Position numbers and translations under genes: made by a program. A stretch of DNA of 63,862 nucleotides, filler included. It is 5 parts of 5 records of this genome, joined end to end, with 100 filler letters (N's around TTAATTAATTAA, not from the genome) between each part and the next. Parts side by side here need not be neighbours in the genome. Positions count along the whole stretch, not along the records: positions 57,259 to 63,862 come from SRR20825006_191; 4 more parts are not named here. One strand, 5' to 3'. Shown one piece after another: positions 14,622-63,862 of this stretch. Below the pieces are notes generated by a model that had not been told where the DNA came from, ran no database searches, and saw only the letters and a list, made by a program, of their open reading frames with translations. Position 1 is the stretch's first letter, and each line of letters opens with the position of its first letter.

Positions 14622-14721
14622 NNNNNNNNNNNNNNNNNNNNNNNNNNNNNNNNNNNNNNNNNNNNTTAATTAATTAANNNNNNNNNNNNNNNNNNNNNNN
14701 NNNNNNNNNNNNNNNNNNNNN
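14622..14721. other. Artificial contig spacer
   Basis: N run, TTAATTAATTAA, N run (100 nt in total). Confidence 0.98.
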
Positions 14722-22574: not shown

Positions 22575-22674
22575 NNNNNNNNNNNNNNNNNNNNNNNNNN
22601 NNNNNNNNNNNNNNNNNNTTAATTAATTAANNNNNNNNNNNNNNNNNNNNNNNNNNNNNNNNNNNNNNNNNNNN
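22575..22674. other. Artificial contig spacer
   Basis: N run with TTAATTAATTAA. Confidence 0.98.
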
Positions 22675-33783: not shown

Positions 33784-33883
33784 NNNNNNNNNNNNNNNNN
33801 NNNNNNNNNNNNNNNNNNNNNNNNNNNTTAATTAATTAANNNNNNNNNNNNNNNNNNNNNNNNNNNNNNNNNNNNNNNNNNNN
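33784..33883. other. Artificial contig spacer
   Basis: N run with TTAATTAATTAA. Confidence 0.98.
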
Positions 33884-44312: not shown

Positions 44313-45953
44313 CTATACAAACATCGTCACAGGATTCTCGATATACTGACGTAAGGTCTGTAAAAATTTAGCTCCCGTTGCCCCATCAACTGTTCTGTGA
44401 TCGCAGGCTAAAGTTACCGTCATTGTATTTCCAACAACAATCTGTCCGTCTTTAACAACTGGTTTTTGTATAATAGCTCCAACAGATAAGATCGCTGAAT
44501 TTGGTTGATTTATTATAGAAGTAAACTCTTTAATTCCAAACATTCCTAGGTTTGAAACTGTAAAGGTACTTCCCTCCATTTCTTGTGGAGTAATTTTTTT
44601 AGTTCGTGCTTTTCCAGCAAGTTCTTTTACCTGACCTCCAATTTGTGAAAACGTCATTTGGTCTGCAAACTTTAAAACTGGCACCAACAAACCTTCATCT
44701 ACTGCAACCGCAACCCCAATATGAATGTGCTTTGCAATTTTAGTAGCTTCTGGAGTCCATTGGCTATTTACTTGTGGATGCTTACGCAATGCCATGGCAC
44801 AGGCTTTTATCACCATATCGTTAAAAGAAATTTTAACGTCTGGATCTGAATTTATAGCTGTACGAGCAGCAATTGCATGATCCATATCCAACTCAATCGT
44901 TAAATAATATTCTGGTGCGGTAAATTTAGATTCGCCCAAACGCTTTGCAATTGTTTTGCGCATTTGAGAATTTTTAACTTCCTCAAAATTTTCAGTTCCA
45001 ACTGGCGTGTATGCTTGACTGCCACTTGCTGTAGGCTGATAATTTTCAATATCGCTTTTTACAATACGACCATTTTCGCCACTACCGTTTACTTGACGTA
45101 AATTGATTCCTTTTTCTTCGGCCAATATTTTAGCTAAAGGCGAAACAAAAATACGTCCTTCATTTAGTGTTTGAGTTGGTTCTGATTTTTTTTCTGAGGG
45201 CGTTGCTTTTTTTGTTTCTTTTACTGAAGTTTCTTCTTTTAAAGGTTTTTCTTCAGAAGTTTTGGTTTCAGAATTTGAAGAAGCATCCTGCTTTTTAAAA
45301 TTTTCAATAATCCCAGAAACATCTGTTCCTTTTGGACCAATAATTGCCAAAACTGCATCAACTAGTGAAGACTCACCTTCGCCAATTCCTATTTTCAATA
45401 AGGTTCCGGAGTAGAAAGATTCAAACTCCATTGTTGCTTTGTCTGTTTCAATCTCAGCAAGAATATCGCCTTCTTCTACGGCATCTCCTTCTTTTTTAAG
45501 CCAAGTTGCAACGGTGCCTTCCGTCATTGTATCACTTAAACGAGGCATTGTAATAACCTCAACACCTTCAGGCAATTCGATTTTATTTGATGAAGTTTCA
45601 GTTTTTTCTTCTGAATTTTCCTCCTTATCAGCTACTTCTTTTTCGCTTTTAGTTGCTTCTTTTTTTGAACCTTTATCAGAAGATTTCCCGCTTAATAAAT
45701 CTGAAATATCTTCTCCTTTTTCACCAATAATTGCTAAAAGTGAATCAACCTTAGCGGTTTCTCCTTCTTGAATCCCAATATGAAGCAAGGTTCCTTCATA
45801 AAAAGACTCAAACTCCATTGTGGCTTTATCAGTTTCAATTTCGGCAAGAATATCGCCTTCTTTTACAGTATCACCCACTTTTATAAGCCAGGTTGCCACT
45901 GTACCTTCTTCCATCGTGTCGCTCAATCGCGGCATGTTTATTACTTCTGCCAT
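44313..45953 (-). CDS. pdhC: Pyruvate dehydrogenase E2 (two lipoyl domains)
   Basis: Two EIETDKATME lipoyl motifs, SPLA...GSG..GRI.K.D, TVSNLGMFG, DHRTVDGA. Confidence 0.95.
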   Translation of the reverse strand: MAEVINMPRLSDTMEEGTVATWLIKVGDTVKEGDILAEIETDKATMEFESFYEGTLLHIGIQEGETAKVDSLLAIIGEKGEDISDLLSGKSSDKGSKKEATKSEKEVADKEENSEEKTETSSNKIELPEGVEVITMPRLSDTMTEGTVATWLKKEGDAVEEGDILAEIETDKATMEFESFYSGTLLKIGIGEGESSLVDAVLAIIGPKGTDVSGIIENFKKQDASSNSETKTSEEKPLKEETSVKETKKATPSEKKSEPTQTLNEGRIFVSPLAKILAEEKGINLRQVNGSGENGRIVKSDIENYQPTASGSQAYTPVGTENFEEVKNSQMRKTIAKRLGESKFTAPEYYLTIELDMDHAIAARTAINSDPDVKISFNDMVIKACAMALRKHPQVNSQWTPEATKIAKHIHIGVAVAVDEGLLVPVLKFADQMTFSQIGGQVKELAGKARTKKITPQEMEGSTFTVSNLGMFGIKEFTSIINQPNSAILSVGAIIQKPVVKDGQIVVGNTMTVTLACDHRTVDGATGAKFLQTLRQYIENPVTMFV

Positions 45954-48873: not shown

Positions 48874-51800
48874 TTAAAGGATAACGAGTTTCTCGAATTT
48901 TTCAACCCGCTGATTTGTTAACGCAGATCTTACCGTAATCTTATAAACATAGACACCTTTTCCGATGCGATCGCCAAAATCATCGCGGCCATCCCAAGTG
49001 ATTTCACGACTAAGGTAGCTACCAGACGGGGCTAAGCTTGCATTTTTTGTCCAAACTACTTTCCCAGTAACCGTAAATACCTGAACCTGTACATCAAGGG
49101 TTTCATCTGGTCTGTTATGATTAAACCAAAATTCGGTGTAATTAACAAATGGATTTGGGTAATTAAGTACGCGGCTTATTTCTAACTTTTCACTACCAGC
49201 AACAATAAATTGTATTTCTGCTGTGGATGAATTATTATAAACATCCCACGCTTTCAGGGTTAGTGTATGCAAACCGTCTTCTAAATCACGGAATTTATAA
49301 TTTGTAATCCCTTTGGTATAATCATCTACTTCGGCTTGGTAAAATTCATTTAAAAGAAAAGGATTAGACTCATCGCCATCGAGCACCGCAACAATATCAT
49401 GTCCAATACCACTTGCCGTATTAATTCCGTTAGGATCTTCTAGTTTCACGAGTAAAATTGGTGAGTCATCAGTAATTCCACCTGAAACGAAACTTTCATC
49501 ATTCATAAAAAGCTTAATAGCTGGACCTTCATTGTCTTCGGGAGCATCCTCATTTAAGCCTCCTACATTCAAATCGAGATTTACACCGGTTTGGTCCTCC
49601 AAAACATCATTTCTTTTTGAATAGAGACTTACCCTTCCCTTACCAACTGGGATTTGTATATCGCGTGGAACTACAAACTCAAACTCAAAAACACCGTTTG
49701 TAATGGATGCTTGACCGTTAAAAAGACCTTCACCCAAAGTAGTGAAATCCATAAATTTATTGTTCCCATCGTTATCTAGCGTTCTACGATTTACTTTTTT
49801 ATCATATATTTTTGCCTCCAGCACACCGTTATATTCCGACATTAAGGAACCACTTTGGCTTAAAACCTCACCTTCCAATTTTATTTTACTTAGCGCTTTT
49901 AAGGTATCTGTAGCTTGGGCAATAGGCACACCGTTTAACTTTGTTAAGCGAATACTTTTTTTAGGGAATGCAAGTCGCATTGCTGGGTCTCCAATGTAAA
50001 AAACAACCCGTCTAAGGGTTCTACCCACTCCCATAGTATTCTTTGAAATTCGCAATCCTTCAGCCGGAGTATTTGGAGGGTCATCACTAAACCCGAATAA
50101 TTGATCCGCCAATAACTCATTAAATGTAACCCCATCATTTATATAAATTGCCCTGGTGGTTGTAACTAGTGATATAGCACCACCTTCCTTATTTTGATAG
50201 GTAAGCTCCCCAGCTGTAATTCGTAATGGGTTATCGAATTTTGTAAACTCGCAAGTAACTGTTATGATACAGGGAAGGTTATCTGAATTTTTTAACTCAA
50301 TTGCTGTTTCTTTTGTATAAATGACTTCTGAAGACAAGCCATCTTCACCTCCATGACCAAAATAATCTATAATAATCGCGCCAACATCAATAGCACTTTT
50401 AATGGCGTCATTAACTTCGGGATAGCGATTTCCTCCGGCTGAAGCTTGTTGTTGGTAGGAATCTGAGTGAATTTTTTTTACATTTATAAAAGGCTTTTCG
50501 GCTTCAATTACATTTCCTAGAGAATCTAATTTTTTTTCTAATATGTCTTCAGATGCTTTATCTACATCATCAGAAATTAACACGAAATTATTTCTCCAGT
50601 TACCATAAGAAGACTGGGATTCATACCTAATAATTTTATCTACCATAGCGTTTGCCAGTGAAACATTATCCACAACAATTCTTCCCATTGCTATATCTAA
50701 CAAATCAATATCTGTTAACGCGCTATTATTGCCAATATCATAGGTTCTACCTCCAATTGTACCTTCATCTTCGTCCATATTACCGAAAAAATCATCAGAC
50801 ATAAATGAGCTACTAATACTAGTGCCCAGTTGTGTTTGGTAGGTTGCCACTATATTATTATTGTTCGCTAGCCGGTTTTTGTAATCAATGGATGCATCGC
50901 CCATTATCCCAACATACTTAACACGTTTATCTATAGAAGAAGCATTGTAATAAACATACCTGATAAAATTTCTAATTGCAGCAATGTCTTGTCTTCCGGA
51001 ACTAAACTCTTCATAAATTTTATCGGTAGTAACCACCTTTACATTGAGCCCTTGAAGGTTTTTATGATAAGTAGCCAAACGTAATGCTGGCTGAATCAGA
51101 AACGGAGCTGTAATAATAATGTAATCTACATCTTTAAAATTTCCAGATTGATCTTTAAAAATAGTCCCTTTTAAATTTTGGTTTTGAACTTGGGACTGTG
51201 CAAGTTTCACTGGAACATAATAGTCATTTGGATTTATTGCAACGTAATTTCGCACTTGCCCCATTGTTTGCTTAAAACTTAATGTAGCCTCATTATTTTC
51301 ATTTTGTTTTGAAGTGATAAACTGAAAGTCTGTTACATCCCAAACTTGTGAAAACTGCGTAGCATTTGTTATTTGATACTCCCCTACTCCTGTTATTGTT
51401 GCGGCATCATTATATTGAAAAAGCAATTGACCAGTTACACCGCTCAATTTTCGTTTTGCCCAAATACTAATATAATCTAGATACCCAACACTGGACGGGT
51501 TACTAGCATTGTTATACTCCAAATCTACAGTCACAGTTTCCCCACTTGCTGGAATATCGACCGTTAATTGATCCATACCTAATAAGTTTCCATTCCCTAA
51601 TTTGGCAAAATTAAGTGGATCCAAACTCGTGCTATTTGCAGACACCGCCATTGAGGTCGTGCTTTCTGAGGTTGCTGCTGCTTTTACTGTAAGTGTAATT
51701 GGTTTTCCTGAAATAATGTTGGGAAATTCAAAACTAAAACTCTGTTCACTTTCAATATCAAAACGGTTCCCGAACCACTTTCTTCCAACTTTTGAAGGGC

Positions 51801-52740
51801 TATACTCGTCTTTTTCATAAAATTGATAATCATCAAACTCAGTGATATTTATATTTGCTGCGCCAGAAGGCTCTACCATTGGCACCACTCTTTTCCCAGG
51901 AGCCCCACCAACAGTAACATAATAATAGGAATCGTCACTATATGGATTTAGATTTGAATCATTTTCCTTCACATATCCTTCGGTACTAGTTCCATAAAAC
52001 AAAATGTAGTCTCCACCATCAAAACTACCATCTGCTTCACCTACAACCTGTATTGCATTTTCAGGTAAATCAAAATATTTGGTTTGTCTATTTAATAAAG
52101 GAAGTGAGTTTCCACCGTTACCATAAATTTTAATATTTCTAGGGTTAATACCATCTGTATTCATTCCCAAATCATTTAGAAATGATCTGTCTAACTTATA
52201 AACCCCCGTTTTAGGCACTTTAAATTTAAACCATTGCCCAGTTGCTAAAACTGAATTGGTTATTGCAGGAGGTGCGTTTTTACGCTGAGAACCATAGGTA
52301 TAGTTAATATCAAAAGAAAGTACTTTTTGATAGGTTCCATTATTTTTTATGATAGGAGAAATATTGAAAATAGTATAAAGCTCATCTCTCGCCATTGTAC
52401 TAGAAATAGAATATTCAAGCTTAGTTGGTAAGTTATTAGGATTTATTTTTTTTAATTCTTCTGAAGAAACAGATCCATAACGCACATTCGTAACAGTTAT
52501 GGAGTTTTTATCAGCAAAACCACCGTCTTTCCATTGGGTTGCATAACTCACATTATCCTTATTCAACTGAAGCTTAAGTCTATCTAAAGCTTCTTCATAG
52601 GCAGAACCTGAAGATTTTCCACCAGCGAAACTTTTGGATGTGCTGGTTGAAGCACCCCAATTTATAGTTATGCTTTTTGATTGCGCTTTTCCTATAAAAG
52701 GCATCAAAATTAGGGTAAATAAAAGTATCGTTTTTCTCAT
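48874..52740 (-). CDS. porU: T9SS sortase PorU (peptidase C25)
   Basis: SVLATGQWFK, C25 domain with YFGHGG and VTCEF catalytic dyad, AWDVYNN, CTD (NYPNPF...WDGRDD.G..IGKGVY.Y). Start moved to ATG 52740. Confidence 0.94.
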   Translation of the reverse strand: MRKTILLFTLILMPFIGKAQSKSITINWGASTSTSKSFAGGKSSGSAYEEALDRLKLQLNKDNVSYATQWKDGGFADKNSITVTNVRYGSVSSEELKKINPNNLPTKLEYSISSTMARDELYTIFNISPIIKNNGTYQKVLSFDINYTYGSQRKNAPPAITNSVLATGQWFKFKVPKTGVYKLDRSFLNDLGMNTDGINPRNIKIYGNGGNSLPLLNRQTKYFDLPENAIQVVGEADGSFDGGDYILFYGTSTEGYVKENDSNLNPYSDDSYYYVTVGGAPGKRVVPMVEPSGAANINITEFDDYQFYEKDEYSPSKVGRKWFGNRFDIESEQSFSFEFPNIISGKPITLTVKAAATSESTTSMAVSANSTSLDPLNFAKLGNGNLLGMDQLTVDIPASGETVTVDLEYNNASNPSSVGYLDYISIWAKRKLSGVTGQLLFQYNDAATITGVGEYQITNATQFSQVWDVTDFQFITSKQNENNEATLSFKQTMGQVRNYVAINPNDYYVPVKLAQSQVQNQNLKGTIFKDQSGNFKDVDYIIITAPFLIQPALRLATYHKNLQGLNVKVVTTDKIYEEFSSGRQDIAAIRNFIRYVYYNASSIDKRVKYVGIMGDASIDYKNRLANNNNIVATYQTQLGTSISSSFMSDDFFGNMDEDEGTIGGRTYDIGNNSALTDIDLLDIAMGRIVVDNVSLANAMVDKIIRYESQSSYGNWRNNFVLISDDVDKASEDILEKKLDSLGNVIEAEKPFINVKKIHSDSYQQQASAGGNRYPEVNDAIKSAIDVGAIIIDYFGHGGEDGLSSEVIYTKETAIELKNSDNLPCIITVTCEFTKFDNPLRITAGELTYQNKEGGAISLVTTTRAIYINDGVTFNELLADQLFGFSDDPPNTPAEGLRISKNTMGVGRTLRRVVFYIGDPAMRLAFPKKSIRLTKLNGVPIAQATDTLKALSKIKLEGEVLSQSGSLMSEYNGVLEAKIYDKKVNRRTLDNDGNNKFMDFTTLGEGLFNGQASITNGVFEFEFVVPRDIQIPVGKGRVSLYSKRNDVLEDQTGVNLDLNVGGLNEDAPEDNEGPAIKLFMNDESFVSGGITDDSPILLVKLEDPNGINTASGIGHDIVAVLDGDESNPFLLNEFYQAEVDDYTKGITNYKFRDLEDGLHTLTLKAWDVYNNSSTAEIQFIVAGSEKLEISRVLNYPNPFVNYTEFWFNHNRPDETLDVQVQVFTVTGKVVWTKNASLAPSGSYLSREITWDGRDDFGDRIGKGVYVYKITVRSALTNQRVEKFEKLVIL

Positions 52741-52757
52741 TAGTACCATTAACGCTG

Positions 52758-52842
52758 CAAATATACACTTAGTATAAGCTAACAATTTAAACTTTTCACC
52801 TAAAATGATATTAGGATAATAATTTTAAAACTAATACGTTTG
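52758..52842. promoter_or_regulatory. Divergent Bacteroidota -7 elements for porU and gldJ
   Basis: TATATTTG on the minus strand (52758-52765) and TACGTTTG on the plus strand (52835-52842). Confidence 0.5.
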
Positions 52843-52959: not shown

Positions 52960-54636
52960 ATGATGTTAAGAAAAAACCTAGCATTAAAGCTATTTATCAC
53001 TGTTCTTATAGCCACACTTTTTGTAGGCTGTAACAAATCTAGGGACTATAAAGACAGTTCCCGTGCAACAGGTTGGAAAATGAACGCTAAAGAAGGCGGC
53101 TTCCAATACAATCCACAATCCAAAGAACAAGAAACAGGCCCAGGACTTGTATTTGTTGAAGGAGGAACTTTTACAATGGGAAAAGTGCAGGATGATCCAA
53201 TGCACGATTGGAACAATTCCCCAAACCAACAACACGTTCAATCATTCTATTTGGATGAAACCGAAGTTACAAACCTAATGTATCTTGAATACTTAGATTG
53301 GCTTAAAAAGGTTTTCCCTCCTTCTGATGAAAATTACAAAAGAATTTATGATGGCGCTGTACCTGATACATTAGTTTGGAGAAACCGTTTAGGTTTTAAC
53401 GAAGTAATGACAAACAACTATCTACGCCACCCTGCCTATGCAGAGTATCCTGTAGTTGGAGTTAGCTGGGTACAAGCTGTAGAATTTAGCAACTGGAGAA
53501 CAGACCGCGTTAACGAAATGGTTCTTGAAACTGAAGGCATAACATCTCGTAATGCTCGCTATGAAGTTGAGCCAGGCGAAACTTTTAATACAGAAACATA
53601 CTTAAACGCTCCAACACTTACCTATGGAGGAAATGACTCGATAACACGTGGTGGAAAACGTTCAGAGTCTATTAAGAAAAGAAGTAAAGACAGCACCAAC
53701 CTATACATTCAGCGTAAAGATGGATTGTTAATGCCTGCATATCGTCTTCCAACGGAAGCAGAATGGGAATATGCAGCACTTGGTTTGGTTGGACTTAGAA
53801 ATTACAACGTTTATAGAGGAAAGAAAAAATATCCATGGGAAGGTCAATACACACGTTCTGGAAAAAGAAGATCTCGTGGCGACCAAATGGCTAACTTTAA
53901 ACAAGGCGATGGTGATTACGGAGGTATAGCAGGATGGAGTGATGATGGTGCAGATATTACCGCTCAAGTAAAATCGTATGAGCCAAATGATTTTGGCCTA
54001 TATGATATGGCTGGTAATGTTGCCGAATGGGTAGCTGATGTATATCGCCCAATTGTTGATGATGAATTTAATGATTTCAACTACTATAGAGGTAATGTTT
54101 ACACCAAAAACGCTATTGGAGAAGATGGAAAAGTAAAAGTTGTGACTATGGACTCAATAGTTTATGACACATTAAGCAATGGAAAAATTGTAGCACGTAA
54201 CTTACCTGGAGAAATTCTTCAAGTGCCGATTGACGAAAATGAAACTTATTTAAGACCTAATTTTTCGGAAAGTGATAATCGTGATTATAGAGATGGAGAC
54301 AAACGTTCTTCTCGTTACTACCAATCTTTTGCTGACGATGAATCTGAAGGTTCAGATGGATCAAACCGTATGTACAACTCACCTATTCAAAAAGTGAATG
54401 CAGACAGTACAGGAACATTAGACCGTCAATATGACAAGACAACAACTCGAACCACTCTTGTAAACAATGAAGTTCGCGTATACAAAGGAGGTTCTTGGAG
54501 AGATAGAGACTACTGGTTAGACCCTGCTCAAAGACGTTATTTCCCTCAAGATATGGCATCAGACTATATTGGTTTTAGATGCGCAATGAGCCGCGTAGGT
54601 TCTAAATCTAAAAAAGGTAAACGACCAAGAAATTAA
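52960..54636 (+). CDS. gldJ: Gliding motility lipoprotein GldJ
   Basis: Lipobox FVGC, SRATGW, PGLVFVEGGTFTMG..QDD.MHDWNN, RLPTEAEWEYAA, MAGNVAEW. Canonical porU/gldJ/murF synteny. Confidence 0.94.
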   Translation: MMLRKNLALKLFITVLIATLFVGCNKSRDYKDSSRATGWKMNAKEGGFQYNPQSKEQETGPGLVFVEGGTFTMGKVQDDPMHDWNNSPNQQHVQSFYLDETEVTNLMYLEYLDWLKKVFPPSDENYKRIYDGAVPDTLVWRNRLGFNEVMTNNYLRHPAYAEYPVVGVSWVQAVEFSNWRTDRVNEMVLETEGITSRNARYEVEPGETFNTETYLNAPTLTYGGNDSITRGGKRSESIKKRSKDSTNLYIQRKDGLLMPAYRLPTEAEWEYAALGLVGLRNYNVYRGKKKYPWEGQYTRSGKRRSRGDQMANFKQGDGDYGGIAGWSDDGADITAQVKSYEPNDFGLYDMAGNVAEWVADVYRPIVDDEFNDFNYYRGNVYTKNAIGEDGKVKVVTMDSIVYDTLSNGKIVARNLPGEILQVPIDENETYLRPNFSESDNRDYRDGDKRSSRYYQSFADDESEGSDGSNRMYNSPIQKVNADSTGTLDRQYDKTTTRTTLVNNEVRVYKGGSWRDRDYWLDPAQRRYFPQDMASDYIGFRCAMSRVGSKSKKGKRPRN

Positions 54637-57158: not shown

Positions 57159-57258
57159 NNNNNNNNNNNNNNNNNNNNNNNNNNNNNNNNNNNNNNNNNN
57201 NNTTAATTAATTAANNNNNNNNNNNNNNNNNNNNNNNNNNNNNNNNNNNNNNNNNNNN
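57159..57258. other. Artificial contig spacer
   Basis: N run with TTAATTAATTAA. Confidence 0.98.
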
Positions 57259-57373
57259 AATTTCCCGGAATTTCCCCGAAATTTTCCCTGAAAGTTTTCC
57301 CGTCGGGAATTTTCTCGGAATTTCCCGGAATTTCCCCGAAATTTCGCCCAGAAGTTTTCTCGTCCGGGAATTT
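57259..57373 (+). repeat. Left-end tandem repeat: about 1.9 copies of a 60-bp unit built from ~10-bp TTTCnnnGAA subunits
   Basis: AATTTCCCGGAATTTCCCCGAAATTT... starts at 57259 and again at 57319. Confidence 0.9.
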
Positions 57374-57664
57374 ACAGCTACTTTTCATAAACTTATGTGC
57401 AGTGGTTATCCTCGTATACGTGCGATGCATTTCCCGGTAAGTGTAATGCATGCGTTTTACAAACTGTATTTTTATAGTCATACGTAGTACACATAACATA
57501 CGTATACACGTTTAGAGGTGTATAATAACCACGTGTTTAACATATATGTTGTACGTGTTGACGACGTATCATTAATGCTAATGCATATTAAGAAAAGCTA
57601 GGTGATGTTGTATGTTGTATCTATCCGGAAGGTTACCGTAATCGAATTAGAACTATGCAGTATT

Positions 57665-60600
57665 ACACCTTTCCTGGGATGGTACTCGTAACGGATATAC
57701 TCCGGGAAACATAACACGATGCATTAACATATTACGTATAAGCATAATTTGTAGTTATATGCTTGGTATTGTAAGGGGTTCACGTGAAAATAATAGCTGG
57801 TGCAATACAAGCATTTAATTAATATTTTTTATGTTTTATACAGATACATATTTGTAGGTATTACCTGGAAAGGTGGCATTGCGCACGTCTAACATACGCT
57901 ACAACCCGTGGGTGACATTAATTACACTACGGGCAGTATAATAAACTCGACGCCATCACCAACGCAAGTTATGTTACATATTGTGTAAGCACTCCCACGG
58001 CTATCACATACAGCATGGACATATACAACACACCTTTCCTGTAAAATTAAGTACGTATAAACATAACGCATACAAAACAAATCTAAATACGTTGTAAGCA
58101 AGTAGTCACGTACAACACTATGTATGCGCTGTGGGTATTACCTGGTAAGCGTCTAACCATCTCAACATGTCCTCGTAGTTATAGGATACAAATAATAAGA
58201 AACAATGCAATGCACCTTTCCTATGTTAGCAAGTGTATGCATATTGGTTTATCGGACAACAAAATACGACATGTAATTGTAATGTAACCTTAGATACACA
58301 GTAGCTCTCCCGCAGGTGAAATGTGCGGTACTCCATACGTTACAATTACGTAGTGTATCGTGTTATACTTATGCATACAGTCTGATGTAATGTTATATAC
58401 CTAGTACGTGTATATTATTAACGTACAATACTATTAATATGTATATAGCAAAACACCAAAAAAAAAAAGAGCTGTAACGTAAGTTATGACTAACGTCCCG
58501 TGTGTCTATAATTTTTAAGGCATGCTTACCACGTGGTCTGTTGTACACTACCCGCAGGCATTCACTCATACATGTTACGTGGTGGGAGTATGCACACCTT
58601 TCCTTAAAGTTCATGTACACCTAATAAGTAACGACACATAAAATACCACACCGAACACACCCATGAGTATAGCCTATACAGACGTGCATACAACAGGCGT
58701 TTTAAAACAGTTAAATGCGTAACATGCTACACGTGTTACCGTAACACGTGTACGAGACGTACGTATTGTACGATAGTGGTGCATGATCCCGAGTTATGCA
58801 TTTTAAATTTTATACATATCAGTGTATGTGGTTACTGACTTTTTTCCGGAAGGCGTGTATCGAGTAATTACACGGCATTACATGCATACACGGTATTCCG
58901 TATCACATGCATAGTCCACATATATAACGGGTTACACCTTTCCTGTAAAAACGATGTTCTCTCGGCATGTACGTATGCAACAACAAACAAATACATAACT
59001 CACATACATGTAATAGATGTAACAACATGCAGTAGTTACTGAAATTTTTTTTAATGCGTTTCCACATAACACGCCTACGTAATGCGTAATATCCCGTGGT
59101 ACGATATGTACGTTGTTAAGTTACGCACACGACGCGGTGTATTTCCGATCGCGATACCTACTATGGTCGTACATGCATGTCTATCGTGGTTTTTTGTCAT
59201 TACAATACCCGTAAAACGCGACAGGTTTGGAAAGGTGTCCGTCCAGGGATATTCATATAGATAAGCTGTCTTCTAATTATGTAATGCCTACACCTTTCCG
59301 TAATTGATAAGTACAGCGTTAACGTAACACAACGAAAACACTCAAAAGCAAAAGTACATATTATGGCATGCATCCCGGTTATGCCGTACCCGATGCATAC
59401 TGTACTTTACTATTTTGTTTTGTTACGTGCGACGGAATACTCATACTACACTTCCCAGGAAAGGTGTGCATATTATATGCTACGTACATCGTATATACTA
59501 TACTAAAAAGTTGGTACACAAAAACTATACGGATATGTATTGTACATGGTGGTACAAACGTACGCATGTAGTAATACACCCCTGCTTATTACTTACCTGT
59601 GTAGTTTATGTTTTATTTGTGTTTGTGTTACAAGGATACTATTACCACGGCGTATAGGAAAGGTGTGTCCAGCTACCACTGAACATGTGTGTTATCATAT
59701 AACTTACCATATGTACGTATACGTTAACATGTGCAGTACATGTTATGCACGTGTAATACGGATCATATTACAAGCAAGTACGCGGGGTGTTTGTTATCAC
59801 GAAAACAAAAAGGCATGCATCCCTATGCATGGTGGCTATACGTAACGTATATTACGTAACATGTAATCACGTAAATAACCCGCGTATTATGCACTGTGTA
59901 TATACGTATACAAAAATATGTTATGTTATACCGTGACACACCAGGATAAGCACATCTCAAATCCTTATTTTTGTTTTCATTTTGATGCACACTGGATGTA
60001 TTAAATTTATTAAAAACGGTGTAACTGTATTGGTATGACTGTATTGTTACACTCATCCGTTACATTTTTTTACATACACGGATATGGTTAATGATCTACC
60101 AGTAATAACAGGTGGTACATGCGGCATACCGACATACAGATTCCGTTCAGTATTAACCACAAAACTACGTGCATTAAAACGTATTAACGCGTACATGCGA
60201 TTATGTAGTAGACATACGAAAAGTACAGACTCCCGAAGCGTGCAACGCAATGCACAATCTCGTCGTGTACATTATTGGACGTAGCCTTACCGGAGTTACT
60301 AAAACTAATTGTGCTTGGTTTATGTTTTTTATACACGTGGAGATACGTGCGTGTATGCGCTGGAAAGGTGTTATACGCGTACGTCCATAAGAATATACTT
60401 TTCATAGGTAAAGCATTTAAAGTACGATAAACGCACCCAAGGCGGTATAGTCGGAGGTACCCTACAATGCGGGCATCCCACAGCCAACGCCACACGCATA
60501 TTATGTAAGCTGTGCACCTTTCCCGTAATCGTGTTATGTACTGCTTATATAGCAATAACAAAACCTAGAATTGAAAGATGTCGCATTACATGTTATACTT

Positions 60601-63600
60601 GATGCATTGTGCTGCCCATATATGTACGCATATACTCCGTATATTACGTATGCTGCATGTTATGTATGTAATGCTACACATGTACACCCGCTCTGTATAT
60701 ATGTTTTGCATGTACCACACATGTCAGTATACATAGTTTCGGAATGGAGACGTTGCGTATGTGTCGTTCCATGATAACGGATGTCTTAATTTTATTTTTT
60801 TGTGATTATAAATTTCATGGAAATAACCTATATTTATTAGGAAAGGTGTAAACGTATATCCCATCGTGCATGACAATAATAAAAACGCATAGTACAACCA
60901 TATGGTATAACTCTATAGCGCATACCGTACACATCTCACGTCCCACGACGGTGTAGGCTGTACTACACCTTTCCTAGTGGATGTAGATGCCCCATACCCG
61001 TGTAAAAAACATCAAAATAAATTTGTAAGTGTAATATGCTGGCACATTACACATGTGTGCGTGACTAAGGGGTATTTACATGATGTACTACCTAGTCCGT
61101 ATAGTTTAATACATCCCATGTGATTGCACCTTTCCTGGTATGTAGCGTATACCGTAAAGTGCAGCAAACAACAAAAATAAGCTCAGTAGAATATTGTAAT
61201 ACCTGGGAAGTATCACATATACGATGTGCACTGCTACTAAGTGAAACGTACTACTCATACAAGGTGTACAGTATATAATAGTATACCTCTCTGTGCTTAT
61301 GACATACGCCGTACGTACACCTTTCCTGGGTAACAACGACATTTAAAAAACACCGCACAACCAAAAACTATAAAACTAAATAATACTTTTTATGTAACGT
61401 ACATTACGTAGTGCGTCGCGGTGTATTAATACGTTGTTTTACCGTTTGGTAGATACGTACTATATCGTGCACATGTTATATACACGTATTTATGTCGTAC
61501 GCGTATAAGTAAACTTTGTTTTGCTGTTTTGCTCGCGTACACTCCATGGTATACTACGTGGAGGACATACACCCATATACATATATAACACGTACCGGCT
61601 CGGGTGTACACTTACACGTACACCTTTCCTCAAGTATAGTAGATACGTATACACACGTAACAACATTAAAAAACTATATTATCATACTCCGATGGGCGTT
61701 ACATTGATAATACACTTACGTCGTGGCGTATTATTAACCCCACTCCGGGGATGCTATCCCTACACCGTGCACGGTACACAACACGTGTACGCGAAGTAAC
61801 GTCAATACTTATTCCGTTTACGTGCACGTCCCAGGTAGCATATACAAATTTATTATTTGTGTAATAATAGATACACGCTGTTCATGCAGATACCTACCCG
61901 GTAATGCGTATACCCATGCACGCCTACCAACATAGTAACGTAACTTGCTTGTGTGTGTACGCGCATGGAGAACCCTACAAGGTAACCTTTCATCATGTGG
62001 AATACATAACTGCCCGCATATAGCACAGCGTATATCGTGTTACAACTCTTGTGTAACCTTCCCATTATGTATGGAGATTACGTAATTAGTAATCCGACAG
62101 ACCTGCCTAGGAAAGGTGTACCCCGGTGTTGTATGGTACTAACGGACTACCATCACAGGTGCATGTGTGTATTGTAGATACCTATACCCTTACAATCACA
62201 TTGTGTAATTGGGATTACGTCACTATACGTACATTACCCACATGATTGTGGTATGTTAACTGTACGTAAGTATATCAAACGACGTTACTGTATATATACC
62301 CCGATAGGAGAGTATACGTTACTACCCTGCAATGTATACGTGTGGTTTTTTGTCATGTTCGTACATGTACCTGCAGTGTTATAGGAAAGGTGTGACTATT
62401 TACCCTTACGTTACATATAGTACTGTGCGTACATCATTCTATACTGCAAAGGTTATACTATTACTTATTATATACAAGTATGAGTATTACATGCGTGTTG
62501 GGATCTTCCCCGGTACACCACCAGACTACGATAAAATTTACACGGTATGGTACTGTACCGTTTACGTACACGCCACACCTTTCCAGAGTATGCATGTACT
62601 ATCTAACCTATATAGAACAAACAAAAAAATAGAGTAACGTTATACATTGTACGGACTTGAACGTCTGTAATTGATTTAATATATGTAGTGCAGTATATTG
62701 CTACCTGTTACCCGTCATGTAGTTGTTACGGAACGTGTTTACCGTTGTACCCCGGTTACTACTGTTGGAAGGGTTTGTTGTTTTTTTATAATCGTTTACA
62801 ATACATACCCTGCCCGGAAAGGTGTATTGTTTCACGTTATATGCAGATACCATCCCGCACAGGGTTTGCATTGCACCGCTGATCACGTATTATGTACATG
62901 ACTTACGTATCCTGGAAGTTCTTGTGCATGCTTGTCTTTGTTTGTTCTGAATTGTATGATAGCATACTATACCGGAGGGGTTATCTCGGAAAGGTGTGCA
63001 TGCTATCCAACAGGATTAGTGTTGATTACGTTGTATGCTTTCATGTTAATAATCAGACACGTACAACATCGGAAAGGTGTGAATCCCGCATGTTTTACGT
63101 ACGTATATATATCGTAATATATAATATATTACGAAACTCACACCCCGCGGAGGGCACACCTTTCCGAATATGAATTAACAAATTAATAACTAACAAAACT
63201 TAAACACCGTAAGCACATGTGATACAAACTATGCAACCACAGTACCACGTACATGATGTGCATGTAGTATTGCGTTATGCCGTTACGTGTAGGTATGTAT
63301 CGCGATAGCGATTGTACATATATCGTGTGTTTGTTGGAAAGGTGTGTACATGTAGGTTGTAATTACATACTACGTAATGTGTTTTGTACATTTACGCATA
63401 CAGAGTGTGTAACAGTTAAACCGTTGTGTACTTAGTGCACGTATGCAATACCGGACTTTCCCCGGGGAATACATCGTTATTAACCCACCTGCGCTGTAGA
63501 TGTGTACCCCCCCCCCCCTTAAAAAATGTAGTCCCATGTTTTAAAAAAACAGATGCGTTAATCTTACGACAGTACTGCACCGACATGCTGTAACAGTGAT

Positions 63601-63651
63601 ATTTTTATAAAATGTGCAAATACATTTATATAATTAATGTTACACCTTTCC
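57665..63651. repeat. Dispersed array of 26 GGAAAGGTG(T) motifs with linked T-tracts in non-coding DNA
   Basis: Plus strand: 57867, 59229, 59458, 59657, 60362, 60840, 62110, 62384, 62816, 62988, 63071, 63336. Minus strand ((A)CACCTTTCC): 57665, 58030, 58213, 58594, 58934, 59290, 60515, 60965, 61127, 61317, 61620, 62575, 63156, 63642. Confidence 0.92.
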
Positions 63652-63828
63652 AGCAGTATGCGGCGTATCTGGGTATACAACACACAAAATAAAAAAATAA
63701 ATAATAGTGTGTATATCTAACCCGTATAACATAGTAAGCTTGCCGTATATGATGTTGATATATGGTAAACAAAACATAACGACTATGTATAACATGTAAT
63801 AACGTATTGTATATTTCAGATAATAACA

Positions 63829-63862
63829 GGAAAAATTCCCGACGGGAAAATTTTCGGGGAAA
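63829..63862 (-). repeat. Right-end repeat, inverted relative to the left end
   Basis: 63832-63850 is the exact reverse complement of 57295-57313, and 63852-63862 of 57271-57281. Confidence 0.85.

Follow-up and report, generated by a model that had tools for sequence, protein, structure and literature searches.

What does a 6.6-kb contig encode that repeats one short motif on both strands and carries no genes? The contig (positions 57259-63862) is the last of five that four artificial N44-TTAATTAATTAA-N44 linkers join into the 63,862-base stretch of DNA analysed here (the window), and it contains the whole motif array under study. A previous reading of the letters of this DNA (the sequence-only reading) took the array for cassettes of guide RNAs of the kinetoplastid type, which direct the insertion and deletion of uridines (U) in messenger RNA (mRNA). 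We found a motif followed at a fixed distance by an A/C-rich tract, repeated along many related molecules, and we put the probability at about one in two that 57259-63862 is a kinetoplastid chromosome for guide RNAs, which would be short and would pair almost only by Watson-Crick base pairing.

A motif and an A/C-rich tract at a fixed distance

The window was searched for ACACCTTTCC allowing at most one mismatch and 30 matches were found where 3.69 were expected; none of 100 shuffles reached 30, the highest count being 8. Twenty-six of the 30 matches lie in 57665-63651 on the fifth contig, 14 on the plus strand and 12 on the minus strand. Twenty-two of these are exact and four have G or C as the first base; the motif is written RCACCTTTCC. 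The array described by the sequence-only reading is real by this measure, but it starts at 57665, 365 bases before the start given then (58030). Spacing between the window motifs was irregular, from 61 to 705 nucleotides (nt). A tract was defined as an A/C segment with a score of at least 10, searched for at +25 to +80 from the motif start. Such an A/C-rich, G-poor tract was detected in 22/26 window units as compared to 3/26 and 6/26 equal-size control windows, and the example cited earlier at 63678 was as described (unit 26 in the table).

Unit anatomy was then measured on 404 units, taken from the window contig together with 18 relatives from marine metagenomes (described below), aligned on the motif and leaving out units with less than 60 nt upstream or less than 140 nt downstream to the contig end. 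Density in the bodies of these molecules was about 4 units per kb. Position -2 was a purine (R) and position -1 a pyrimidine (Y; T 57%, C 29%), followed by the motif. C made up only 4-8% at +10 to +16, positions +17 to +35 were background-like, and +37 to +54 consisted of 50-68% A, 17-33% C, 9-23% T and 2-11% G (2-9% to +52), with composition back at background by about +70. A tract score of at least 10 was reached by 321/404 units as compared to 37/404 and 55/404 in controls, confirming the claim that a G-poor, A/C-rich stretch follows the motif. The best A/C segment mostly started at +33 to +41 (24-32 nt past the motif end) and ended at +51 to +68, and this peak of tract starts places the tract, as a putative gene, at a conserved distance from a conserved element. 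For about 7 nt past the tract end G was back at 22-28%, a return that had also been pointed out before, and C was still low (6-14%). No conserved position was found downstream of the tract up to +150. The anatomy is that of small-RNA genes set a fixed distance from a conserved motif, on a multi-unit molecule free of open reading frames (ORFs), and agrees with descriptions of the guide loci of Trypanosoma brucei and Trypanoplasma borreli. Read as its complement, the tract would have about 60% U, 20% G, 12% A and 4% C, a composition that fits pan-edited mRNA, as had been said of the antisense strands; the pan-edited atp6 and rps12 ORFs of Perkinsela are given as 55-62% U in the part of the study cited here (PMC4669381).

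Distances between neighbouring motifs were assessed in 398 pairs. Same-strand motifs kept a minimum of 73-86 nt with one exception at 46 nt, convergent motifs kept a minimum of 140-150 nt (one pair at 49 nt) over a broad range of 140-809 nt, and divergent motifs came as close as 10-30 nt. These exclusion zones are one-sided, which argues that the functional unit is the motif plus about 65-75 nt downstream, with nothing upstream.

The payload of the units was assessed for words common to different units. Exact matches of at least 15 nt between tracts numbered 61 as compared to 26 with one partner reversed. When words were weighted by information and motif words were masked, 29 words of at least 24 bits were common to different units at +30 to +65 as compared to 2 with reversed partners, and the three control windows gave 11 vs 2, 6 vs 6 and 10 vs 3. 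Register relative to the motif, within 3 nt, was kept by 33/53 payload words of at least 22 bits as compared to 9/29, 11/33 and 16/36 control words (25-44%). Examples are a 22-mer of the related contigs L013 and L066, a 17-mer of L054 and L079, and ATCGCTATCGCGA, which occurs in the window unit with its motif at 63336 on the minus strand and in units of L079 and L035. The flanks of the shared words, spacer included, were unrelated. Shared words that are in register and have unrelated flanks indicate a block of 13-22 nt at a fixed motif distance that is held for its sequence, and this block would have the appearance expected of a guide or an anchor.

Payloads that are not A/C-rich form a minority, yet they (ATCGCTATCGCGA; ATACTCCGGGAAAC) occur again in units of unrelated Tara contigs, with a similar offset. 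Were the units guides, such payloads would be candidates for anchors on unedited RNA.

Relatives, ends and surroundings of the contig

Metagenome contigs were scanned for two motifs 151-181 nt apart, which gave at least 118 loci. Among the 118 matches listed, 18 were accepted as relatives of the window contig because their G+C content (GC) was 0.36-0.41 and both strands carried the motif, at a density of 1.6-6.2 per kb (16/18 had 3.2-6.2). They are contigs of 1-12 kb from marine metagenomes, 15 from one ocean sample, L034 and L060 from a second metagenome and L066 from a third. Several carry inverted ends of the TTCCNGGAA type, as seen at both ends of L081 and over 292 nt at 87.7% in L061. The first 138 and last 50 bases of the window contig match L081, L061, L087, L013, L054, L091 and L100 at 80-94%. 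When the 19 sequences were compared by BLAST, only 7/246 pieces lay more than 600 nt from the contig ends in both partners, six of these seven within a single contig, which argues that the bodies are unique. Guide-bearing kinetoplast DNA (kDNA) molecules of one species likewise have a shared conserved region and a variable region with the guides, as stated in the part of a 2026 review cited here (PMC12936278); in the marine set the termini are shared and the bodies are unique. The most distant relative, L066, has different termini (inverted over 216 nt at 91.7%), keeps the core ACCTTTCC in 31/35 of its CCTTTCC sites and carries the tract at an unchanged distance from the motif.

The other 100 of the 118 listed loci were rejected by motif counts, strand and GC as one-strand satellites or chance matches of two motifs, and for six of them the contig ends were inspected too. 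In viral contigs a terminal-repeat 21-mer had 0 matches, the motif pair had 2 chance matches (GC 0.52) and a 14-nt terminal word had 119 matches, none with more than one motif. Two further features were seen at the ends of relatives. In L079 (1-236) and L100 (4135-4731) one end has tandem copies of about 79 nt, 76-87% identical to each other, which replace the TTCCNGGAA-type repeats or lie outside them, and about 400 nt of subterminal sequence is common to L040, L091 and L035 (identity 76-86%).

In the public run X1 a 6551-nt contig is identical to 57315-63862 and has a depth of 43. Summed depth in the terminal bins of 57259-63862 was 4502 on the left (about 100x body) and 1681 on the right (about 40x body), indicating that the ends are common to many other molecules. 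Two further X1 contigs (6313 and 7978 nt) align by one end to 57278-57364 with 8-10 mismatches. Judged from its sequence, the molecule is probably linear with inverted repeat ends. By eye, an element TT-R-CAGC-Y ... AAATCA was seen just inside the terminal repeats (57374-57400 in the window, and in L066, L040, L035 and L091), a possible origin or end-processing site. The right subterminal region holds a C11 run followed by A-rich and T-rich runs (63505-63550), outside any unit.

The contig or parts of it were present in six public runs (X1-X6) from three studies, and its coverage and depth were examined in four of the six. Three runs of one study contain every sampled word of 57259-63862, and the two other studies contain pieces at 100% identity and low depth. 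Six pieces of 181-429 nt are present in run X6 with 100% identity, apart from a single A>G and an A run that is longer by one base; that X6 is RNA is only a guess, and these pieces do not show transcription. Uncovered stretches in X4-X6 carry no meaning. The 100% identity extends across runs of three studies and five different organism labels, suggesting one clonal organism or a culture contaminant common to the samples.

The window contig has no ORF of more than 125 amino acids (table 11), and the 19 related sequences (99,890 bases) have no credible ORF, the longest stop-free frame being 156 amino acids with table 1 and 239 with table 4. The scarcity of TGA and TCA is the sole reason why many overlapping table 6 frames are open, and several overlapping frames stay open for 300-700 codons when only TGA stops. 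Rfam at E up to 1 returned no family on 57259-63862, with two sub-threshold chance matches, and ARAGORN called no transfer RNA (tRNA) there. Over the window contig and its 18 relatives the dinucleotides GA/TC (odds 0.51) and AG/CT (0.64) were depleted, AC/GT (1.54), TA (1.30) and CG (1.24) were enriched, and purine and pyrimidine alternated in 61.6% of steps. The depleted dinucleotides are those that compose the motif.

Table. Coordinates of the motif units, the contig ends and other features along the window
Feature	Position	Strand	Motif	Tract	Remarks
Left terminal repeat	57259-57373				two tandem copies of about 60 nt (57259-57313, 57319-57373) with TTCCNGGAA-like sub-units; common to many other molecules
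Left subterminal region	57374-57664				no units
Unit 1	57665-57717	+	57665-57674	57707-57717	weak tract (score 8.5); ATACTCCGGGAAAC common to an L040 unit
Unit 2	57825-57876	-	57867-57876	57825-57837	motif CCACCTTTCC
Unit 3	58030-58090	+	58030-58039	58059-58090	
Unit 4	58212-58271	+	58212-58221	58256-58271	motif GCACC...
Unit 5	58594-58663	+	58594-58603	58630-58663	
Unit 6	58934-59008	+	58934-58943	58978-59008	
Unit 7	59186-59238	-	59229-59238	59186-59197	
Unit 8	59290-59353	+	59290-59299	59326-59353	
Unit 9	59413-59467	-	59458-59467	59413-59424	
Unit 10	59598-59666	-	59657-59666	59598-59629	
Unit 11	60309-60371	-	60362-60371	60309-60330	
Unit 12	60514-60565	+	60514-60523	60553-60565	motif GCACC...
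Unit 13	60790-60849	-	60840-60849	60790-60807	16-nt word common to an L054 unit
Unit 14	60965-61021	+	60965-60974	61004-61021	
Unit 15	61126-61180	+	61126-61135	61165-61180	motif GCACC...
Unit 16	61317-61386	+	61317-61326	61345-61386	longest tract (42 nt)
Unit 17	61620-61674	+	61620-61629	61651-61674	
Unit 18	62049-62119	-	62110-62119		no convincing tract (score 6)
Unit 19	62340-62393	-	62384-62393	62340-62353	15-nt word common to unit 7
Unit 20	62575-62629	+	62575-62584	62616-62629	
Unit 21	62763-62825	-	62816-62825	62763-62787	16-nt word in register with an L091 unit
Unit 22	62918-62997	-	62988-62997	62918-62958	stretch translated earlier as MLVFVCSEL
Unit 23	63013-63080	-	63071-63080	63013-63041	weak tract (score 9.5); 83 nt from unit 22
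Unit 24	63156-63208	+	63156-63165	63185-63208	
Unit 25	63287-63345	-	63336-63345		payload not A/C-rich; has ATCGCTATCGCGA, at about the same offset in L079 and L035 units
Unit 26	63642-63704	+	63642-63651	63677-63704	example of the sequence-only reading
Right terminal repeat	63832-63862				inverted relative to 57283-57313 (31 nt, 94% complementary); truncated by window end
Artificial linkers N44-TTAATTAATTAA-N44	14622-14721, 22575-22674, 33784-33883, 57159-57258				N runs
Pyruvate dehydrogenase E2	44313-45953	-			fourth contig
PorU	48874-52785	-			fourth contig (33884-57158, 35% GC)
GldJ	52960-54636	+			fourth contig

The N linker at 57159-57258 makes everything to its right a separate contig, a point that the sequence-only reading does not mention, and the adjacency of the array to bacterial genes is a concatenation artefact. 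GC was 0.56-0.58 in the first contig, 0.47-0.55 in the second and third, 0.33-0.37 in the fourth and 0.38-0.40 in the fifth, and such widely differing values argue that the source 'genome' is a mixed bin or a contaminated draft. The window outside the fifth contig is bacterial and those contigs are unrelated to the guide-like array. The earlier, higher-GC contigs carry MalT-like, GGDEF/EAL and TonB-receptor genes, and proteins of the fourth match PorU, the sortase of type IX secretion (E = 0), and GldJ, a gliding protein (E = 9e-289), which makes that contig Bacteroidota/Flavobacteriia-like. The end of the fourth contig (57110-57158) contains GGTTCGAACCCC, which resembles a tRNA T-arm broken off where the contig stops; from 56900 onward no tRNA was called by ARAGORN. 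The case carries a practical warning, as eukaryotic organelle-like DNA was filed here among bacterial contigs in a bin or draft genome.

Comparison with kinetoplastid guide loci

The guide loci of T. borreli lie on 'ScaI-flanked' kDNA contigs (Gerasimov et al. 2022). As set out in the parts of that paper cited here (PMC9679448), the 17 contigs measure about 70 kb and have bodies that are unique to each and set between tandem repeats, and the molecules are probably linear because these terminal repeats are in opposite orientation. A contig carries about 23 putative guide loci, which lie on both strands without a placement pattern, the motif RYAGGCTTT lies 20-40 bp upstream of the loci, and the guides have a median length of 28 bp with 0.11 G:U pairs per base and tolerated mismatches. 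The marine molecules are alike in being many, with unique bodies and shared ends in opposite orientation, and in having no protein genes and unpatterned loci on both strands. In both, a motif of 9-10 nt also precedes, by 20-40 bp, a short guide that is poor in G:U pairs, the units here being putative guides, and a comparison by eye indicated that both motifs begin R-Y-A and contain CTTT. They are unlike in size (about 70 kb vs 6-12 kb here) and in the motif (AGGCTTT vs ACACCTTTCC), and T. borreli loci were found via alignment to edited mRNAs whereas the units here are known from motif and composition (PMC9679448). The favoured reading would be a variant of the T. borreli type of organisation. 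The sequence-only reading had called such a molecule unlike classical minicircles, which is true, but a multi-guide and probably linear molecule has already been published for T. borreli. In the literature searched on linear guide-RNA molecules and marine kinetoplastids T. borreli was the only case, and a search on the motif itself gave no related description among the matches listed.

Other kinetoplastids were compared in the same way, again from the parts of the sources cited. In T. brucei minicircle cassettes (Cooper et al. 2019) the forward 18-bp repeat precedes the guide start by 30-32 bp, and guide genes were predicted from nucleotide bias at a fixed distance (PMC6868439). The fixed distance from a conserved repeat and the hundreds of sequence classes are alike (PMC6868439). 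T. brucei is unlike in its 1-kb circles with 3-5 cassettes, paired 18-bp inverted repeats, conserved sequence blocks 1 to 3 (CSB-1 to CSB-3) and bent region (PMC6868439, PMC12936278), whereas the unit here is a lone motif in random orientation on a probably linear molecule, and framing by inverted 18-bp repeats 100-150 bp apart was not found among the 404 units to +150. Perkinsela (David et al. 2015) has guide candidates whose 5' A- or A/C-rich tract is the sole common feature reported in the sections cited, gene-bearing contigs that end in short tandem repeats and kDNA that does not consist of mini- and maxicircles, in all of which it is alike; it is unlike in that those sections report no upstream motif and place the A/C-rich stretch upstream of the portion that is complementary to mRNA (PMC4669381). 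The HL-circles of Vickermania likewise bear several guide genes and are far larger than minicircles (15-22 kb), but they are circular, with conserved-region cassettes, inverted-repeat flanks and 2-5 guides per molecule (PMC12936278).

Inference covers transcription of the units and the strand it uses, where the RNA would start and end, its mRNA targets, and both organelle and host. The contig would belong to a set of small linear molecules, tens or more in number, from a eukaryotic organelle. Most likely they would be the kDNA of a marine kinetoplastid, free-living or symbiotic, whose sequences were assembled or binned together with those of bacteria. These molecules would be capped by inverted arrays of about 60-nt repeats and their bodies filled with minimal small-RNA genes, about 4 per kb, in random orientation. 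Each gene is predicted to open with R-Y-ACACCTTTCC and about 7 nt free of C, which would serve for positioning or as a promoter, to continue with a spacer of unconstrained sequence, and to close with a short RNA-coding payload. The payload would begin 24-35 nt past the motif and be rich in A/C, with almost no G, over about 15-35 nt. The payload RNA would pair almost wholly by Watson-Crick with U/G-rich edited mitochondrial mRNA and, as a short guide of about 20-35 nt, would direct U insertion/deletion, the role proposed in T. borreli.

Weighing the guide reading against its rivals

Several results weigh against a guide-RNA chromosome. Tract similarity is in part low complexity, shared words exceeded the reversed control only 2-3 fold when a wider window and all offsets were used, and the tract has no 3-nt periodicity. 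Redundant guides that use G:U pairs are expected to differ mainly by transitions. In the 3' flanks of the 35 best in-register pairs identity was 0.30, transitions 0.18 and transversions 0.52, as compared to 0.30, 0.21 and 0.49 in random pairs, and 121 pairs gave the same result (flank transitions 0.18-0.24 overall vs 0.21-0.22 in random pairs). The absent transition excess speaks against the G:U-rich guiding region that had been predicted and weakens the guide reading, although truly redundant pairs in the sample may be few. The peptides MLVFVCSEL and LDLFC, taken earlier as hints of COX3, are present as read, but 0/10 payload-sense frames of the window contig (TGA as W) matched a mitochondrial Pfam family at E up to 10. 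The proposed link to CSB-3 comes down to the six bases GGTGTA: CSB-3 (GGGGTTGGTGTA) with at most one mismatch had 0 matches in 99,890 bases, in which the outermost termini are maybe unassembled, and with two mismatches there were 16 matches, scattered among those listed. T. borreli also differs in density, with about 1 unit per 3 kb vs about 4 per kb here (about 12x), and in a terminal repeat of about 1 kb with a CSB-3-like 12-mer vs about 60 nt without CSB-3 here (PMC9679448). The U insertion/deletion hypothesis as first put forward is thus supported in part, in its anatomy but not in the COX3 hints, CSB-3 and the G:U region.

A short constrained block of 13-22 nt with no wobble-type continuation, the absence of CSB-3 and the open-ocean and other marine metagenomes from which the relatives come would also suit short guide-like RNA genes of another kind or host, which act via 13-22-nt pairing and not in U insertion/deletion. 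Transcript-joining antisense guides in a non-kinetoplastid organelle (a diplonemid relative) or the payloads of a selfish linear plasmid are examples. We consider this unlikely, as the implied target (about 60% U, 20% G) has the composition of a U-insertion editing product, to be compared with the 55-62% U of Perkinsela (PMC4669381), and as the architecture agrees with that of T. borreli point by point in the cited account. A diplonemid host is further opposed by its chromosomes, which are described in the part cited as circular with largely shared non-coding regions (PMC6792441), whereas the molecules here have inverted-repeat ends and unique bodies, with no coding fragment in the 10 payload-sense frames of the window contig or the ORFs of the relatives. 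The motif and its A-rich neighbour could instead be sites for protein binding, replication or packaging that recur along a non-coding linear DNA of selfish or satellite type, be it organellar, viral-satellite or nuclear extrachromosomal. This would fit a tract that is defined mostly by composition, and depletion of GA/TC (0.51) and AG/CT (0.64) is expected if stray sites are avoided. Such sites need neither a one-sided exclusion zone of 70-75 nt nor in-register payload words between unrelated units, and A autocorrelation at lags 10-11 (1.02 and 0.98) indicated no A-tract phasing, making this quite unlikely. More unlikely still would be previously undescribed organellar or extrachromosomal 'guide libraries', thousands of RNAs of about 20 nt on gene-free linear mini-chromosomes of a marine protist that is not a classical kinetoplastid, with a function other than U insertion/deletion, for example as the trans-acting guides long sought for gene-fragment joining in diplonemid-like mitochondria.

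A bacterial genome or mobile element (an integron- or shufflon-like array, phage or plasmid) or an assembly artefact is scarcely credible. The rest of the window consists of bacterial contigs and the GC of 0.38 is near the 0.35 of the Flavobacteriia-type neighbour, but the array is joined to that neighbour by an artificial linker only and has no ORFs. BLAST of 57259-63862 gave no match among 72,556 plasmids or 50,697 phage records, and the terminal 21-mer had two chance matches only in GTDB genomes, in ordinary coding or unrelated sequence. The identity of 100% in runs of three studies and the relatives in other metagenomes speak against both a bacterial origin and an artefact. Clustered regularly interspaced short palindromic repeats (CRISPR) are direct repeats of 23-50 nt and integron attC sites share one orientation, with regular spacing and cas or integrase genes nearby. 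The fifth contig has a 10-nt motif on both strands at irregular spacing of 61-705 nt and no genes, and so resembles neither array.

If the array is a guide-RNA chromosome, it would represent a new kDNA architecture, in which linear molecules of 6-12 kb end in inverted repeats and carry 25-50 minimal guide genes apiece. The table of the 2026 review (PMC12936278) has circles of 0.7-2 kb, circles of 15-22 kb and the 70-kb molecules of T. borreli, with nothing like 6-12-kb linear molecules of 25-50 units among these entries, and the density of guide genes would be the highest among the organisms in that table. The 10-nt motif together with the tract would then provide a simple signature for such DNA, and hence for editing-competent kinetoplastids, in marine metagenomes.

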